A stretch of DNA of 64,000 nucleotides from Escherichia coli (lineage in GTDB: Bacteria > Pseudomonadota > Gammaproteobacteria > Enterobacterales > Enterobacteriaceae), in assembly GCF_041886205.1 (NCBI RefSeq), contig NZ_CP169029.1. The stretch is one strand, 5' to 3'. The position numbers and the translations under genes are program-made. The notes beneath the pieces are model-generated. The model worked only from the letters and a program-made list of their open reading frames with translations, made no database searches and was not told where the DNA came from. Below are positions 50,428 through 56,900 of the stretch, piece by piece; position 1 is the stretch's first letter; every line of letters starts with the position of its first letter.

Positions 50428-50466
50428 TGGTTTTATCATTTGTATTTAATATACAAATGATAAAAC
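50428..50466. repeat. Perfect 17-bp-arm inverted repeat at the left edge of the adhesin island
   Basis: ggttttatcatttgtat-ttaat-atacaaatgataaaacc, read directly; located 15 nt after the yfgJ stop in an AT-rich spacer. Confidence 0.8.
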
Positions 50467-50621
50467 CTTCTCTTATTAGTTAAATCATTAATACATGTGA
50501 GTAAAATTATTTAGATATATTTTTAGGAATATATTTAGTTTTTCTGACGTGCCTTCCTGAATGTTCTGGCATAGAATATTAGAGCTTATTCATCAAATTA
50601 TCATTGCCACAGGGAAAGTGC

Positions 50622-52796
50622 ATGCTGCGATGGAGTCGCTTTATTATGTTACTATTCATCTCTGCTGCAACTCCTGCGGCAGAGATAAATAGTAAGCAAA
50701 ACGAATCGTTACCTGATTTAGGCAGCCAGGCGGCTCAACAAGTAGAACAAACGGATAAGGGTAAATCGTTAAAAGAGCGTGGAGCCGATTACGTCATTGA
50801 TTCTGCTACGCAAGGGTTTGAAAACCTAACCCCCGAGGCGCTGGAATCTCAGGCCAGAAGCTATCTGCAAAGTCAAATCACCTCAACCGCACAATCTTAT
50901 ATTGAAGACACACTCTCTCCCTACGGTAAGGTCCGTTCGAATCTCTCTATTGGTCAGGGTGGCGATCTGGATGGTAGCTCCATCGATTATTTTGTTCCCT
51001 GGTATGATAATCAAACGACCGTTTATTTCAGTCAATTTTCTGCGCAACGAAAAGAGGATCGTACGATCGGGAATATCGGAATTGGAGTAAGACATAATTT
51101 CGATGAATGGCTTTTGGGTGGGAATATATTTTACGATTATGATTTCACCCGTGGGCATCGTCGTTTAGGTTTAGGGACAGAAGCCTGGACCAATTATTTA
51201 AAATTTTCTGGCAACTATTATCATCCGCTCTCTGACTGGAAAAACTCTGAGGATTTCGACTTTTATGAAGAGCGTCCGGCGCGCGGTTGGGATATTCGTG
51301 CTGAAGCCTGGTTACCTTCTTATCCACAACTGGGGGGCAAGATTGTCTTCGAGCAATATTACGGTGATGAAGTCGCCCTTTTTGGTACGGATAATTTAGA
51401 GAAAGATCCCTATGCGGTGACGCTAGGACTAAATTATCAACCGGTACCGTTACTGACAGTTGGAACGGATTATAAAGCGGGGACCGGAGATAACAGCGAT
51501 GTCAGCATTAATGCCACTCTTAATTATCAGTTCGGCGTTCCGCTAAAAGATCAACTCGACAGCGATAAAGTAAAAGCAGTCCACTCGTTGATGGGTAGCC
51601 GACAGGACTTTGTCGAGCGTAATAACTTTATCGTCCTGGAATATAAAGAGAAAGACCCTCTGGATGTGACGTTGTGGCTGAAAGCGGATGCGACCAACGA
51701 GCATCCAGAGTGCGTCATTAAGGACACTCCTGAAGCGGCGGTCGGTCTGGAAAAATGTAAGTGGACCATTAACGCACTGATCAATCACCACTACAAAATT
51801 GTCGCTGCGTCATGGCAGGCGAAAAACAATGCCGCCCGCACGCTGGTGATGCCGGTCATCAAAGAAAATACCATCACTGAAGGCAACAACAACCACTGGA
51901 ATCTGATACTGCCAGCCTGGCAGTACAGCTCTGACAAAGCTGAGCAGGAAAAACTCAATACCTGGCGGGTACGGCTGGCGCTGGAAGATGAAAAAGGTAA
52001 TCGGCAAAACTCCGGCCTGGTGGAAATCACTGTTCAGCAGGACCGTAAAATAGAGCTTATCGTCAATAACATTGCCGATGCGCCTGCCGAGAATAACCAC
52101 AGCCATGAAGCCAGCGCTCAGGCGGATGGCGTTGATGGTGTAGTCATGGACCTCGAGGTGACGGACAGTTTTGGCGATAACACGGACCGCAACGGTGATG
52201 CTCTGCCAGAAGATAATCTTGCACCGCAGCTCTACGACGCTCAGGACAAAAAAGTCACGCTAACCAATAAACCCTGCTCGACCGACAACCCCTGCGTGTT
52301 TATTGCCAAACAAGATAAAGAAAAGGGAACGGTAACCCTCTCCAGTACATTGCCAGGCGTTTTCCGCTGGAAAGCGAAAGCGGCTCCCTACGATGACAGT
52401 AACTATGTGGATGTCACGTTTATTGGATCTGATATCGGCGGGCTTAATGCTTTCATTTACCGGCTTGGGGTAGCGAAGCCAGTCAATTTGATCGGCAATG
52501 ATAAAGACCCCCTGCCGCTGGGCAACACGTACCGATTTGTGTTGTGGCGTGATGCCAACAAAGACGGCGTTTTTCAGCAGTCGGAAAAACTAACCGATGA
52601 AGAGATGACTCAGTACGACTACAAGTGGGAATTTACCGGCAAGAGCATCAATGGCGAAGTAGGTGCGCAGGCGAACACATCCAATGCAGACATTGTAATA
52701 CCGGCGACCAACCGTGAAGCGGCGCAATCCTATGGTGCAAAAGTGGAAGATGGCTTGCAGGGATACGGTTTACGCGTGCTGTACACCAAAAAATAA
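50622..52796 (+). CDS. sinH: Intimin/invasin-family inverse autotransporter (SinH-like)
   Basis: Signal peptide MLRWSRFIMLLFISAATPAA; intimin/invasin-like beta-domain motifs (GNIGIGVRH, YYHPLSDWK, GWDIRAEAWLPSYPQLGGK, EQYYGDEVALFG) followed by passenger domains. An alternative TTG at 50604 would give the 730-aa track ORF. Confidence 0.75.
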   Translation: MLRWSRFIMLLFISAATPAAEINSKQNESLPDLGSQAAQQVEQTDKGKSLKERGADYVIDSATQGFENLTPEALESQARSYLQSQITSTAQSYIEDTLSPYGKVRSNLSIGQGGDLDGSSIDYFVPWYDNQTTVYFSQFSAQRKEDRTIGNIGIGVRHNFDEWLLGGNIFYDYDFTRGHRRLGLGTEAWTNYLKFSGNYYHPLSDWKNSEDFDFYEERPARGWDIRAEAWLPSYPQLGGKIVFEQYYGDEVALFGTDNLEKDPYAVTLGLNYQPVPLLTVGTDYKAGTGDNSDVSINATLNYQFGVPLKDQLDSDKVKAVHSLMGSRQDFVERNNFIVLEYKEKDPLDVTLWLKADATNEHPECVIKDTPEAAVGLEKCKWTINALINHHYKIVAASWQAKNNAARTLVMPVIKENTITEGNNNHWNLILPAWQYSSDKAEQEKLNTWRVRLALEDEKGNRQNSGLVEITVQQDRKIELIVNNIADAPAENNHSHEASAQADGVDGVVMDLEVTDSFGDNTDRNGDALPEDNLAPQLYDAQDKKVTLTNKPCSTDNPCVFIAKQDKEKGTVTLSSTLPGVFRWKAKAAPYDDSNYVDVTFIGSDIGGLNAFIYRLGVAKPVNLIGNDKDPLPLGNTYRFVLWRDANKDGVFQQSEKLTDEEMTQYDYKWEFTGKSINGEVGAQANTSNADIVIPATNREAAQSYGAKVEDGLQGYGLRVLYTKK

Positions 52797-52850
52797 GATT
52801 GGCGTAAGGCCAGTCGGCCAGTCGCTGAAGATTCATTAAGGAGAGACTCA

Positions 52851-53828
52851 ATGAAGCAGGACAAAAGACGCGGTCTGACCCGGATCGCATTGGCGCTGGC
52901 ACTGGCGGGTTACTGCGTGACGCCCCTTGCGCTGGCGGAAGACAGCGCGTGGATCGAGAGCGGCGAGACCAATATTTTCCAGGGGACTATTCCGTGGCTC
53001 TATTCGGAAGGAGGAAATGCTACGACAGATGCCGACCATGTAACGTTGACTTCTGATCTAAAAGGCGCTCGCCCGCAAGGCAGTGAAACGGACAAGCGTC
53101 TTTACTCGGGTGATAAACTAACCGTAAGCTGGGAGATTGGCGATACTGAAGGCGACGTCGATCTTGGTACGGCGGGTAAAGATGCAAAAACCATCGATAC
53201 CATCCGCTGGATGAGCTACAAGGACGCCCAGGGGGGCGATCCAAAAGAGCTGGCAACGAAGGTGACCACTTACACCCTTACCGATGCCGACCGTGGACGC
53301 TATATCGGTATTGAAATTACCCCAACCACCCAGACGGGTACGCCATACGTTGGGACTGCGCTGCATCTTTATGATGTTTCAAATGCTAACGGCGGGGGAA
53401 GCGATGAAGATAACGTTGATCCAGGACCGGTAGTTAACCAGAACCTGAAAGTCGCCATCTTTGTTAAAGACACTACGACCAACCTTATTAACGGCAATAC
53501 GCCAATCCAGTTGGGCAAAACGTACGTCGCCAAACTGTACTCGGATGAGAACAAAAACGGTCGGTATGACGCGGGTACTGACGTTGATGTTACCACCAAT
53601 TATGACTACCGTTGGGTACTCTCTGGCAGCAGCCAACAGCTCAGCACCTCGGGTGGTATCGTTAACTCAAGCTTCGATAATCAAAACCTGGTCATCCCTG
53701 CGACCAACGACGAAGCCAGAACCAACCTTAACGGCCCTGCTCGTGATGGCAAAGAGGCTCTTGCGATCCCGACCAACGGCGATGGGGTTCAGGGTTACAA
53801 ACTGCAAATTATCTACAAACACAAATAA
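52851..53828 (+). CDS. Secreted SinI-like protein with a C-terminal module shared with the SinH-like protein
   Basis: 325 aa; AAGGAG RBS; signal peptide (ALALAGYCVTPLALA); C-terminal ~110 aa align by eye with the SinH-like C-terminus (YDYKW/YDYRW, IPATN-EA, QGYGL/QGYKL). Confidence 0.75.
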   Translation: MKQDKRRGLTRIALALALAGYCVTPLALAEDSAWIESGETNIFQGTIPWLYSEGGNATTDADHVTLTSDLKGARPQGSETDKRLYSGDKLTVSWEIGDTEGDVDLGTAGKDAKTIDTIRWMSYKDAQGGDPKELATKVTTYTLTDADRGRYIGIEITPTTQTGTPYVGTALHLYDVSNANGGGSDEDNVDPGPVVNQNLKVAIFVKDTTTNLINGNTPIQLGKTYVAKLYSDENKNGRYDAGTDVDVTTNYDYRWVLSGSSQQLSTSGGIVNSSFDNQNLVIPATNDEARTNLNGPARDGKEALAIPTNGDGVQGYKLQIIYKHK

Positions 53829-53839
53829 CACTTGCTCAA

Positions 53840-53868
53840 CAGCATTCCCGCGTGGGAATGCTGTTTCC
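53840..53868 (+). terminator. Putative intrinsic terminator after the sinI-like gene
   Basis: cagcattccc-gcgt-gggaatgctg hairpin followed by tttcc. Confidence 0.45.
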
Positions 53869-53948
53869 GCATATTTTGCTTAATTCAGGATTAAGCAAAA
53901 TATGTTGATGCGGTAACCGTTCGTTAAATAACTGGTGGAGTTCTTTTC

Positions 53949-56900
53949 ATGTCCCAGCCCCTGAAACCCGGCACTTTTTATGTTCTGCTTGTATTGCTGC
54001 TAACCGCAATGCTGCCGGGATGGTCATGGGCGGGCTCGTCATGGCAAGACTCATCCGATACGGCGGGAGAATTTAACGGTACCGTCCCCAATGCCGACAG
54101 CGCCAGTATGCCGGTTTATCAGGGCAGTATTTGGCTTGATCCTGCAAAGACCCATGATGTTTCGTTTTCCGCTAAACCCAATGAATTTAGCGTTAATCTG
54201 GATGTGTCGAAGCTGATTGTGACGAACCCGCAGGACCTGGAAGGGGATGTGTTTACCAACCCCCGTTGGGAAAACCAAACGCCGCCAGCGGTCTCTTTAG
54301 TCTGGGCGGATGCGGCGACACCGGAAACCCCACTTAATCCTCAGCCAGTGGCTGGGCGTTCCTTTTGTGCGCAAGGGCTTGCTGGGCGTTCGCTGGTTGT
54401 CTGGCCGCAGCCAGACCCACAGCAGACCATGCCGCAACTTTATCTACGCACCTCGACAGGTTATCCCTATGAAAGTCTTCTGACGCTTGTCGATAAAAAA
54501 GTGACGTTAAATATTGCACCGGCCCAGGGCGACTTAATTTCTGTCAGTGCGGCCGGTTATGACGATACCGTGGGCGGGGCGAAAACTACCGTTGGCGGCA
54601 ATATCACGTTGACCGTTACCACCAAAGACTGCAGCGGCAACGTTGCAGGAAATATTCCTTTTATTATCAAACGCAAAGATGCTGAAAACCGACAGGGTGA
54701 GGTCAACAATGCTTCGCCGGTTGTTCTGGACAAAACTGAACTGACCACTATCGCGACCGAATATCACGGCACCACGGATGCGAACGGCGTTGCGACGATC
54801 ACGGTCACGCAACCCAACGGCCCTGGTGTAAAAACGCCGCTGGTAGCCAGTCTTTCAGGTATTGGTCAAACCAGTGAAACGGCAGTGATCTTTACCGTCC
54901 TTACCAGCCCGGATGTCCCTCAGGCCACGATGTGGGGCCATATGCCCGATACGCTAAAGGCCCATGATTATACGTTCAGTCGGCCAAAATTGGCGGCAGA
55001 AGTCGATAACGAAAATGGTACCGTTAACGATCACAATGAAACCTGGTCTACCTTCACCTGGAGCGGGGCGGATAAACATTGCGACATTTTGCCCGGTATG
55101 CGCCAGTTTGGCGCGTTGGCAACGGTGGTGCCCACGACAGTTCAGGATCTCGTTGGTTGGCCGATACAGGGTAACTACTACTGGTCATCACTGGCGGGGA
55201 TGACCGGACAGCACCATGCGGCGGATGTTTCCAACCGTAGCGAAGCGCAAAAACCGGACGATACGACGTTTATTGTCAGTTGTGTCGATAAAGAAGCTCC
55301 TGACGTTGAACCGAAACTGGTGCTAACACCGGGAAGCTATGATTCGACGTTAAAGGCGATGAAAGTAAAGGTGGGGGAAGAAGCGTCTCTGCGTGTAACC
55401 ATCACCGATAATAAAAACAATAATCAACCGCTGGCGTATTACTACTTTTCGTTACATCTGGATGACGGCATCAACCGTAAAAATCCATCGGATGCGGCAT
55501 GGGAAGCGCATCCGGTGCAGATAGCGGGTGGCAGCAATGTCCATCAGGTTGACGCGCATACCTATGAAGGCATTACGGATGTAAATGGTCAGGCATCACT
55601 GACGCTAACGCAACCGGGCGGCGCGGGCGTGAAAACACACATTACTGCGAAAATGCGCAGCGACTTCACCACGTCGGATGAGAAAGACGTGATTTTTACA
55701 GTCATTACCAGCCCCGATACTGACAAAGCCCGGATGTGGGGGCATATGCAGGGTATTATTGATTCTAATAATATCTTTAAACGTCCACGGCTGGCAGATG
55801 AAACCGACCATGAACTCGGTTCAGTGCGGGAGAACAACGAAGACTGGGCGCTGTTCGACCAAAATAGCAGCATGCAGGCTGAATGCGGTGTAGGTCATAT
55901 TCCGAGCCAGAATCAATTACAGGGTCTGTTCACGGCGCATCCTGGCAATGCGATTGGCACCGAATATGGCTGGCCGACGGCGCAAAAAGATTACCTTAGT
56001 GCGGTACAACAAGAGCCACACTCCTCCGTGAACCTGGGCACAGGTAACATCGACACCTATTCAGGCTTTAAGCAGAACTATCTCTCCTGTTCCGGTAATG
56101 AGATGGTTGCTCAGATTACCGCAACGACCGATCATGACGTTTCCGTGGGCAGCAGGGCGCAGGCTAAAGTTGGAGAAACCGTCACCATGACGGTGCATAC
56201 CTTCAATGCACTGAATAATGCGCCCGTGCCGTTTACCGCCTTCAGCATCACAAAGGAGATGGGTAAAAACCGTCAGGGGCAGACTACCGGATATACCGAT
56301 CCGACGAGTGGCGCAATTGAGATGAATGGCACGCTCTACGGAACATCCCAGGCCTCGGTGGTTTATTCCGGGACTACGGATGCACAGGGCTACGCAACGG
56401 TGGAGATTGAACAACCCCAGGGCGTGGGCTTAATTACGCCGCTAAATATTGCGCCTGTGAACTCCTATATTCCCAATACAGTAAATTACAACGTGATTTT
56501 CACCACGCCTACCAGCCCGGATGTGGTGGCGGCGCAGATGTGGGGGCATATGGATGAGACTATTACAGTCGATTCTTTAACCTTCACCCGGCCTAAACTG
56601 GCAGCGGAAGTTTCCAGCCCGGATGCGACATTGACAGAAAATAATGAAGTCTGGGCACGTGTGAGTCAGGCGAATACGTCCAGTATAAGTAAAGGTGGCT
56701 GTGGAGCGAATATGCTGCCGCGTCGATCCCAGCTTAGCGCGCTCTATGAGGCTAATAACGGTAATGCTGTACAAACAGTACACGGCTGGCCAACCCTGCG
56801 TGAGCCGTACTGGAGTAGTTCCCCAGCGGATAAAGTTCCTCATTTTTACACCATTGCACTCAATGATGGCGCACAGGCTATTGGCGGTAGCAACGCGGTT

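Follow-up and report, generated by a model that had tools for sequence, protein, structure and literature searches.

The sinH-sinI gene pair is known from Salmonella and from E. coli. In a passage of Heinz 2016, similarity between SinH and SinI is credited to Kingsley 2003. It is restated by Goh 2019 for E. coli IatB and EcSMS35_2660, and the NCBIfam model NF040711 bears the name 'SinI family autotransporter-associated protein'. SinH-SinI paralogy is thus already known, and the suggestion in an earlier note on this DNA that it was undescribed is wrong. A ZirT/ZirS-like relation is proposed for SinH and SinI by Heinz 2016 and Goh 2019. Secretion of ZirS is strictly ZirT-dependent, also when rebuilt in E. 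coli K-12. For the export of a second protein, Heinz 2016 points to the difficulty that the barrel is already plugged by the passenger of the autotransporter. Co-transcription of sinH with sinI is stated in a review. According to Goh 2019 biofilms form through IatB with the downstream protein dispensable, so SinH needs no SinI for biofilm activity. Domain 3 of SinH is called 'receptor binding domain' by Xing 2023. Residues 602–724 of ST131 SinH, designated 'SinH-3', are a published ExPEC vaccine antigen (Xing 2023), which protected mice against ExPEC. SinI is not mentioned in the vaccine paper (Xing 2023).

The window is a stretch of 64,000 nucleotides of Escherichia coli (contig NZ_CP169029.1, assembly GCF_041886205.1). 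It carries an island with the same genes, in the same order and at the same site between der and xseA, as the Salmonella CS54 island (SinH/SinI, also SivH/SivI) and the E. coli IatB/EcSMS35_2660 locus. The island is absent from E. coli K-12. It differs from these in its rare allele (match of at least 99% in 8 of 5426 complete E. coli genomes, most being at 80–90%), in a divergent SinI (about 45% identical to the Salmonella/Citrobacter type) and in a 12-residue insertion in the SinI module. Added here to the known similarity are the age of the duplication, the distribution of the module as one copy per protein, the conserved sinH-sinI pairing, a candidate EF-hand-like loop in both proteins and the predicted fold class. 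The features are listed in Table 1.

Table 1. Features of the island in the window (nucleotide positions of the window; aa, residues of the encoded protein)
Feature	Position	Strand	Basis
sinH, intimin-like inverse autotransporter (type Ve)	50622..52796	+	NF033423 SinH equivalog
SinH beta-barrel translocation domain, aa 68-341	50805..51626	+	Pfam IAT_beta PF11924, E 4.8e-107
SinH passenger domains 1 and 2, Ig-like, aa ~350-610	51651..52433	+	
Shared module, copy 1 (SinH domain 3), aa 611-730	52434..52793	+	BLASTP, HMM, hhalign to SinI
EF-hand-like loop DANKDGVFQQSE in SinH domain 3, aa 650-661	52551..52586	+	Pattern match
sinH-sinI spacer, 54 nt	52797..52850	+	Sequence, terminator scan
sinI, SinI family autotransporter-associated protein, 325 aa	52851..53828	+	NF040711
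Predicted SinI Sec-type signal peptide, aa 1-29	52851..52937	+	Sequence reading, SinI alignment
SinI mature N-terminal motif WIESGETNIFQGTIP, aa 34-48	52950..52994	+	hhalign vs RatA
SinI N-terminal Ig-like domain, distantly ZirU-like, aa 72-209	53064..53477	+	NF040485, beta-rich model
Shared module, copy 2 (SinI C-terminal domain), aa 196-325	53436..53825	+	BLASTP, HMM, hhalign
EF-hand-like loop DENKNGRYDAGT in SinI module, aa 232-243	53544-53579	+	Pattern match
RatA-like giant repeat adhesin, 2683 aa, third island gene	53949..62000	+	NF011844, 5240 bits
RatA-like mature N-terminal motif, aa 32-47	54042-54089	+	hhalign, regular expression

SinH has the architecture of an inverse autotransporter (type Ve), an N-terminal IAT barrel followed by a C-terminal Ig-like passenger. 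Member of the SinH equivalog family NF033423 (residues 7–730, 1466.8 bits, cut-off 999). The longest open reading frame starts at a TTG (50604–52796, + strand), encodes 730 aa and gives the residue numbering used here. The annotated ATG start (50622), taken from a genome identical over the compared 3.6 kb, gives a protein of 724 aa, in which domain 3 comprises residues 605–724. The barrel matches invasin (4e1t, E 3.5e-72) and intimin (4e1s, E 7e-63) in the PDB, and NCBIfam intimin models align with residues 93–405 only, that is with the barrel and the residues just beyond. Pfam scans give IAT_beta alone in SinH and nothing significant in SinI. The passenger alignment was built from genomic loci; a word-indexed homolog search with the SinH passenger gave mainly fragments and chimeric entries.

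SinI is a member of the family NF040711 (residues 7–322, 342.9 bits, E 1.8e-102, cut-off 165). Its AlphaFold2 model has a pLDDT of 85.8, with values below 50 in the signal peptide region. The signal peptide, read from the sequence and the SinI alignment, starts with MKQDKRRG (KRR as the n-region), continues with a hydrophobic core and shows ALA before the predicted cleavage site. A lipoprotein anchored through the invariant Cys22 is rejected, Tyr at position −1 being unfit for a lipobox. The N-terminal domain scores 23.5 bits (E 5.1e-5) against the ZirU family model, the cut-off of which is 100; the similarity is remote and SinI is not a member. A strong ribosome-binding site, AAGGAG, ends 6 nt upstream of the sinI ATG, and the scan of the spacer detected no terminator-like hairpin.

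SinH domain 3 and the C-terminal domain of SinI are old paralogs, copies of one domain of about 115 residues. By BLASTP, SinH 627–730 and SinI 210–325 are 34% identical over 119 columns (55.5 bits, E 1e-12); outside this C-terminal match the comparison of the two proteins gives no further significant segment. SinH 626–727 matches positions 199–299 of the NCBIfam SinI model (E 1.2e-21), and SinI 208–325 matches positions 625–730 of the SinH model (E 7.9e-12). When the SinI family is aligned with SinH passengers by hhalign, the module alone matches (probability 99.5%, E 8.4e-23) and is widened to the limits given in Table 1. The motifs G.TY, D.N..G, YDY.W, IP.TN.EA and DG.QGY are conserved in both families; residues invariant among 19 SinH and 19 SinI sequences include Y643, D650, W675, P700, N703, A706, G717, Q719 and G720. 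The claim of the earlier note that the two C-termini are paralogous is borne out, as the pairwise similarity that it proposed to check is significant. The motifs on which it relied are all real, and the range that it gave, 52500–53828, was roughly right.

The module is predicted to be an Ig-like beta-sandwich, not a lectin-like tip. Its models contain 5 to 7 strands and one 8-residue helix. Compared by the order of their secondary-structure elements, the predicted models of SinH domain 3 and of the SinI C-terminal domain agree. The C-type lectin-like fold of intimin D3 and invasin D5 is not seen in the predicted module, so that the analogy drawn with the lectin-like tip holds for position only. 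When SinI, the SinI profile and a profile of the module were compared with PDB sequences, no match fell below E 0.4. Pfam has no family for the module; DUF5057, at E 0.01–0.07, is noise.

The residue pattern of an EF-hand-like loop, D-x-[DN]-x-[DN]-G-x-hydrophobic-x-x-x-[DE], occurs in SinH (DANKDGVFQQSE) as well as in most SinI proteins (e.g. DKNSNGTYDTGE). Both families retain D-x-N-x-[DN]-G-x-[FYW]-x-x-x-[ED], with a few departures; SinI of this window has Thr at loop position 12. The loop is a putative calcium site, to judge from its residue pattern. The polar and loop residues D650, N652, N703, D716, G717, Q719 and G720 are kept in both paralogs, which suggests a retained functional site.

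In the loci examined the module occurs once per SinH, once per SinI and nowhere else; in SinH it scores 148 bits against the module HMM, as a single copy. With the module HMM and hhalign it was not found in RatA-like open reading frames, SinH domains 1 and 2, or the N-terminal domain of SinI. Among 1.84 billion representative proteins the HMM has 96 matches at E ≤ 1e-3. Short fragments aside, the near-full-length matches are C-terminal in proteins of about 290–400 aa and about 720–750 aa; the three long ones looked up are inverse autotransporters. In 19 of 19 loci with upstream DNA (Escherichia, Citrobacter, Pseudocitrobacter, Superficieibacter, Leminorella, Buttiauxella) sinI is directly preceded by sinH in the same orientation. 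A Lelliottia locus, which ends just upstream of sinI, still shows the module-bearing 3' end of the upstream reading frame, and the pairing is also found in Rahnella and Yersinia mollaretii. In Gilliamella the neighbour has the module and the inverse autotransporter is without it; in Zophobihabitans a SinI-like gene has no inverse autotransporter within 10 kb.

The module copies of SinH group in one clade and those of SinI in another, gene conversion being nowhere apparent, and module identity within a genome (0.386) is about that between genomes (0.379). Both copies were therefore kept since before the genera split. Within the locus, SinH domain 3 and SinI evolve fastest (mean pairwise distance 0.32 and 0.42; barrel, 0.20), and SinI shows deep allelic classes. 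Pairwise distances of sinH and sinI correlate at 0.09–0.36, those within each gene at 0.76–0.92; such discordant histories argue against tight co-evolution. In a mirror-tree comparison of SinH domain 3 with the SinI module the partial correlation is about 0.4, a value inseparable from physical linkage.

The reading preferred here, given a little better than an even chance, is that the module is an old paralogous beta-sandwich with an EF-hand-like loop and that SinI is a dedicated, co-transcribed partner of SinH. SinI is most likely a Sec-exported partner or substrate of SinH, if the analogy with ZirS/ZirT in partner secretion is followed. Judging from its signal peptide, SinI would pass the inner membrane via Sec. 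By analogy with ZirS and ZirT, it would then rely on SinH for arrival or retention at the cell surface. At the distal end of the adhesin, the shared domain may let the two proteins touch like with like through their Ig folds, or may give both of them the same site for a ligand or for calcium. In the literature searched no experiment on SinI secretion or binding was found. Against a partner role stand the plugged barrel, biofilm formation by IatB in the absence of the downstream protein, the discordant histories of the two genes, the exceptions in Gilliamella and Zophobihabitans and a ZirU match far under the cut-off.

The exceptions in these two genera, together with the discordant histories of sinH and sinI, would fit instead the absence of functional coupling, the module being a reusable adhesin part left by an old duplication and SinI an independent small adhesin of the same island. 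This is considered improbable: a protein with a Sec signal only has no evident route of its own across the outer membrane, the two genes are adjacent and in the same-strand order across several Enterobacterales families, and the module is almost confined to SinH-type and SinI-type proteins. Of similarly low probability is a periplasmic role, in which SinI would serve the SinH passenger or the RatA-like protein as an Ig-fold chaperone or assembly factor. Rapid divergence and deep allelic classes, as in SinI, are more usual in surface-exposed proteins than in chaperones, biofilm formation by IatB works without the downstream gene, and ZirS and ZirU, which of the studied analogues come closest, are secreted proteins.

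Having a signal peptide and neither barrel nor anchor, SinI could also be released as a duplicate of the SinH tip and serve as a decoy or competitor that takes the same host ligand or absorbs antibodies against domain 3. Used as a vaccine antigen, domain 3 raises an immune response and gives protection, and its fast evolution and that of SinI would fit immune pressure. The earlier note had raised this role beside those of a soluble adhesin and a periplasmic partner, of which the partner idea accords with the published ZirT/ZirS analogy. The decoy role, for which nothing specific speaks, is nevertheless the least credible of those weighed and is regarded as very doubtful. The copies are only 35–50% identical within a genome and fall into separate clades, which makes shared epitopes or an identical ligand specificity doubtful; a decoy should keep pace with its target, for instance through gene conversion, and SinI does not; and the second conserved domain of SinI would be superfluous.

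SinI and the neighbouring RatA-like adhesin have in common a short motif, possibly new, right after their signal peptides. The SinI profile and the RatA N-terminal profile align by hhalign over 24 columns (probability 94%, E 1.3e-7), and the regular expression for the motif is specific. The place of the motif fits common handling of SinI and RatA, and the motif is a candidate for a common export signal. A wider proposal, tentative and on balance doubtful, starts from a signature, [ST]-x-x-[ILVF]-x-G-x-x-P, with W-Q in front of it in Enterobacteriaceae, that would follow the signal peptide in every barrel-less protein encoded next to a SinH-type inverse autotransporter: SinI, RatA-like giants, Big2 'third' partners and a Yersinia upstream partner. 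The signature would be an autotransporter-dependent export signal, functionally the counterpart of the TPS domain, and the domain-3 copy of SinI would dock on SinH domain 3 to form a multi-protein adhesin tip. As a corollary of the export-signal reading, SinI would be a mosaic, RatA-like at the N-terminus and SinH-like at the C-terminus. It may, with low probability, have originated by tandem duplication across the junction of autotransporter and partner genes. A single duplication that took in the 3' end of sinH together with the 5' end of ratA would account for both the mosaic make-up and the position of SinI; this origin is made less likely by the loci of Rahnella, Yersinia mollaretii and Gilliamella, which have SinI-like genes and no RatA-like giant.

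The shared module corresponds to SinH-3. Island-bearing E. coli thus have a second, predicted exported protein with an approximately 35% identical copy of the vaccine domain, and the location of SinI and its recognition by anti-SinH-3 sera are worth checking. The SinI/RatA N-terminal motif is a concrete element to mutate in work on the inverse-autotransporter export puzzle.

In position, at the extreme C-terminal end of the passenger, SinH domain 3 resembles intimin D3 and invasin D5. The locus also resembles TpsB/TpsA systems (FhaC/FHA), where a beta-barrel transporter gene adjoins the gene of a Sec-dependent exoprotein; the SinI/RatA motif would match the TPS domain. TpsA exoproteins have a conserved N-proximal TPS domain of about 250 residues, and TpsB proteins are of the Omp85 type with POTRA domains. 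SinH, in contrast, has an inverse-autotransporter barrel, and the SinI/RatA motif comprises about 15–25 residues. No TPS or POTRA match was detected by Pfam scan of SinH and SinI, and the pair does not qualify as classical two-partner secretion. The ZirT/ZirS/ZirU system of Salmonella has an inverse-autotransporter gene followed by barrel-less genes with Sec signals, the products of which share Ig-like domains with the passenger. SinI agrees with this arrangement: it is barrel-less, encoded directly downstream on the same strand, has a Sec signal as read from its sequence and shares an Ig-like domain with SinH. The pair differs from ZirTSU in that what SinH and SinI have in common is, specifically, the final domain of each.

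The C-terminal modules of SinH (domain 3) and SinI are homologous, and the homology is statistically solid. SinH 627–730 (730-aa ORF numbering) and SinI 210–325 are 34% identical (BLASTP, 55.5 bits, E 1e-12); no further significant segment is found by BLASTP between the two proteins outside these ranges. The SinI family HMM is matched by SinH 626–727 (E 1.2e-21), the SinH HMM by SinI 208–325 (E 7.9e-12). Aligned profile to profile, the SinI family (22 sequences) and the SinH passengers (24) match in the module only (probability 99.5%, E 8.4e-23), which widens its bounds to SinI 196–325 and SinH 611–730. The paralogy proposed in the earlier note is thereby confirmed, and the motifs named there are kept in both families across 19 genomes. 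The relationship, of which that note knew no description, is already known. In Heinz et al. 2016 (PMC4943183), Kingsley et al. 2003 is credited with the earlier record ('previously documented') of a similarity between SinH and SinI, the barrel-less protein encoded downstream; Goh et al. 2019 (PMC6714894) report it for E. coli IatB (SinH orthologue) and EcSMS35_2660. The shared module corresponds to the 'SinH-3' of Xing et al. 2023 (PMC9937491), residues 602–724 of ST131 SinH, which gave protection as a vaccine antigen against ExPEC; SinI goes unmentioned in that paper. Co-transcription of sinH and sinI is stated in a 2025 review.

Gene order at 46.7–62 kb is yfgM, bamB, der, a small zinc-ribbon gene, sinH, sinI, RatA-like gene. 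The last three lie on one strand, followed by xseA on the opposite strand, and their products all exceed the curated NCBIfam cut-offs. Translation of SinH from TTG 50604 gives 730 aa, and from the ATG annotated by RefSeq in a genome with the same sequence over the 3.6 kb compared, 724 aa; on the longer ORF the SinH HMM aligns from residue 7 onwards. DNA of E. coli strain wlxctx60 is 100% identical to the window over 3.6 kb. The island is present in 1747 of 5426 complete E. coli genomes, mostly at 80–90% identity. G+C is 0.42–0.43 at 50.0–51.5 kb, the der-proximal island end, and about 0.52 on either side, which fits horizontal acquisition. A 3.1-kb contig in a 'Collinsella sp.' MAG (JAIJJM010000381.1) bears sinH-sinI-ratA, with products 84–89% identical in amino acids to those of the window; most likely a binning contaminant from Escherichia. 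The palindrome upstream of sinH may serve as a terminator or bind a regulator. The elements between sinI and the RatA-like gene may together form an attenuator parting a sinH-sinI transcript from ratA.

Coordinates of genes, motifs and intergenic elements (window positions unless a fetched locus, L020–L026, is named)
Feature	Position	Strand	Details
Perfect palindrome between zinc-ribbon gene and sinH	50429-50467		17-bp arms, GGTTTTATCATTTGTAT-TTAAT-ATACAAATGATAAAACC
sinH, longest ORF	50604-52796 (annotated start ATG 50622)	+	NCBIfam 1466.8 bits, cut-off 999
EF-hand-like loop, SinH 650-661	52551-52586	+	DANKDGVFQQSE
sinI	52851-53828	+	NCBIfam 342.9 bits, cut-off 165
SinI signal peptide, aa 1-29	52851-52937		
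SinI N-terminal motif, aa 34-48	52950-52994	+	WIESGETNIFQGTIP
EF-hand-like loop, SinI 232-243	53544-53579	+	DENKNGRYDAGT
Repeats in sinI/RatA-like gene gap	53843-53904		small hairpin cattccc...gggaatg, then perfect inverted repeat, 15-bp arms, catattttgcttaat-tcagg-attaagcaaaatatg
Terminator-like site between sinI and RatA-like gene	53852-53870		terminator scan
RatA-like adhesin gene, 2683 aa	53949-62000	+	NCBIfam 5240 bits, cut-off 3870
RatA-like N-terminal motif, aa 32-47	54042-54089	+	profile-profile and regular expression
Third-partner genes	L020:11426-12685, L022:11301-12467, L021:1728-2861, L026:13289-14392		

Exactly one module copy per SinH and one per SinI is found by HMM in all fetched loci; HMM and profile detect none in any RatA-like protein, SinH domains 1-2 or the SinI N-terminal domain of these loci. 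sinH lies directly upstream of sinI in 19 of 19 loci holding upstream DNA, and the pairing also occurs in Rahnella and Yersinia mollaretii. A further locus, from Lelliottia, breaks off just upstream of sinI, and of the preceding ORF no more than the end with the module is visible. A search with the module profile through 1.84 billion representative proteins yields no more than 96 matches at E<=1e-3. Near-full-length matches, short fragments aside, form the C-terminal end of proteins of ~290–400 and ~720–750 aa; the long ones checked are inverse autotransporters (3/3). The family extends to Yersinia, Rahnella, Candidatus Fukatsuia, Gilliamella and other Orbaceae. In Gilliamella, an 892-aa inverse autotransporter has no detectable module and its 344-aa neighbour has one; in Zophobihabitans, a SinI-like gene has no inverse autotransporter within 10 kb.

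SinH and SinI copies form separate clades in a neighbour-joining tree across Escherichia, Citrobacter, Pseudocitrobacter, Superficieibacter and Leminorella, except in Buttiauxella, where they cluster together. There is no ongoing gene conversion, since SinH–SinI identity within genomes (mean 0.386) equals that across genomes (0.379). Within SinH, domain 3 evolves fastest (mean pairwise distance 0.32 vs 0.20 for the barrel), and SinI is faster still (0.41–0.43); ST131 and KK19-02 alleles follow the same gradient. The histories of sinH and sinI are discordant: distance correlations are 0.09–0.36 between the genes and 0.76–0.92 within each. In some Escherichia genomes (three loci), SinH is ~90% but SinI only ~45% identical to that of the window, and the ST131 megablast match ends at ~52655, within domain 3. 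The pattern suggests that SinI alleles fall into two deep classes and that recombination has occurred close to the sinH end. Among SinH segments, domain 3 correlates best with SinI (partial r ~0.4), which linkage could explain as well as co-evolution.

AlphaFold2 models have mean pLDDT 85.8 for SinI (>90 over most of the module) and 79.8 for the SinH passenger. The order of elements is equal in both predicted modules: four strands, a helix of 8 residues where the P.TN.EA motif lies, and lastly a long strand at DGVQGY. The pattern D-x-N-x-[DN]-G-x-[FYW]-x-x-x-[ED] is kept, with a few departures, in both paralogs between the second and third strands. Twelve-residue patterns of the D-x-N-x-[DN]-G type are typical of EF-hand-like calcium loops, and the site may bind calcium in both copies. 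Foldseek matches in AFDB50 are the SinI family, SinH proteins and 'BIG2 domain' partners from Hafnia, Ewingella and Lelliottia. The analogy with the lectin-like tip of intimin and invasin is only positional, because no lectin entry occurs among the 60 matches listed for each whole SinI and SinH passenger model, and TM-scores of domain 3 with its invasin/intimin counterparts are <0.5 (PMC9937491).

Immediately behind the signal peptide, SinI and the RatA-like protein carry a common short motif, W-x(5-9)-[ST]-x(2-3)-[IFVL]-x-G-[TS]-x-P (window and 22 fetched loci; hhalign over 24 columns, probability 94%, E 1.3e-7). Its regular expression hits 40 of 307 locus ORFs, all 40 SinI or RatA-like and always at the mature N-terminus; with the whole window translated in six frames, it hits these two sites only. 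A relaxed form, [ST]xx[ILVF]xGxxP (~5e-5 per residue in the window's six frames), can be made out by eye right behind the signal peptide of the barrel-less proteins in the Rahnella, Yersinia, Gilliamella and Zophobihabitans loci; Rahnella p367 reads ...GTLIGTVP, off the pattern at the first position. In PMC4943183, the section on co-encoded substrates describes the N-terminal region of Rat-like proteins as 'highly divergent' and is silent on the motif, which is a candidate signal, common to both proteins, for export or recognition. Conservation of the SinI signal peptide is unusually high ('AGYC..P'; A19, G20, C22 and P25 invariant, Y21 nearly so, in 22 diverse sequences). A lipobox is ruled out by Tyr at position -1.

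Loci of Buttiauxella, Lelliottia and Rahnella have, in place of the RatA giant, a third partner of 367–420 aa. That of Buttiauxella A111 and Lelliottia begins with a SinI-like N-terminal domain (NF040711 positions 5–201, E ~1e-25), followed by a Big2/intimin-like domain and an end resembling a C-type lectin (W..A...C...GY.LP). A further match of the A111 protein, to the RatA N-terminal profile (E 7e-5), ties the SinI and RatA N-terminal regions together. In B. agrestis it is RatA, not SinI, that the N-terminal part matches. The partner proteins look modular, with lectin-like ends occurring there, but not in SinH domain 3 or SinI.

Biofilm is formed by IatB without the downstream gene (PMC6714894). 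This counts against SinI as a partner of SinH, as do the discordant histories and the puzzle, raised in a passage of PMC4943183, of how a second protein passes a barrel plugged by its own passenger. It is rather unlikely that SinH and SinI are without coupling, given the conserved gene pairing; SinI as a decoy or as a periplasmic helper is judged similarly improbable. With moderate confidence, the published reading, drawn by analogy, is taken as the likeliest: SinI would be a Sec-exported partner or substrate of SinH. In its favour are that pairing, the 54-nt sinH-sinI spacer with ribosome-binding site AAGGAG and no terminator in a terminator scan, the signal peptide read from the SinI sequence, a weak ZirU_fam match of the SinI N-terminal domain, and confinement of the module to the SinH and SinI protein types. 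SinI would then relate to SinH as ZirS does to ZirT, the Salmonella inverse autotransporter on which ZirS secretion strictly depends, even in E. coli K-12.
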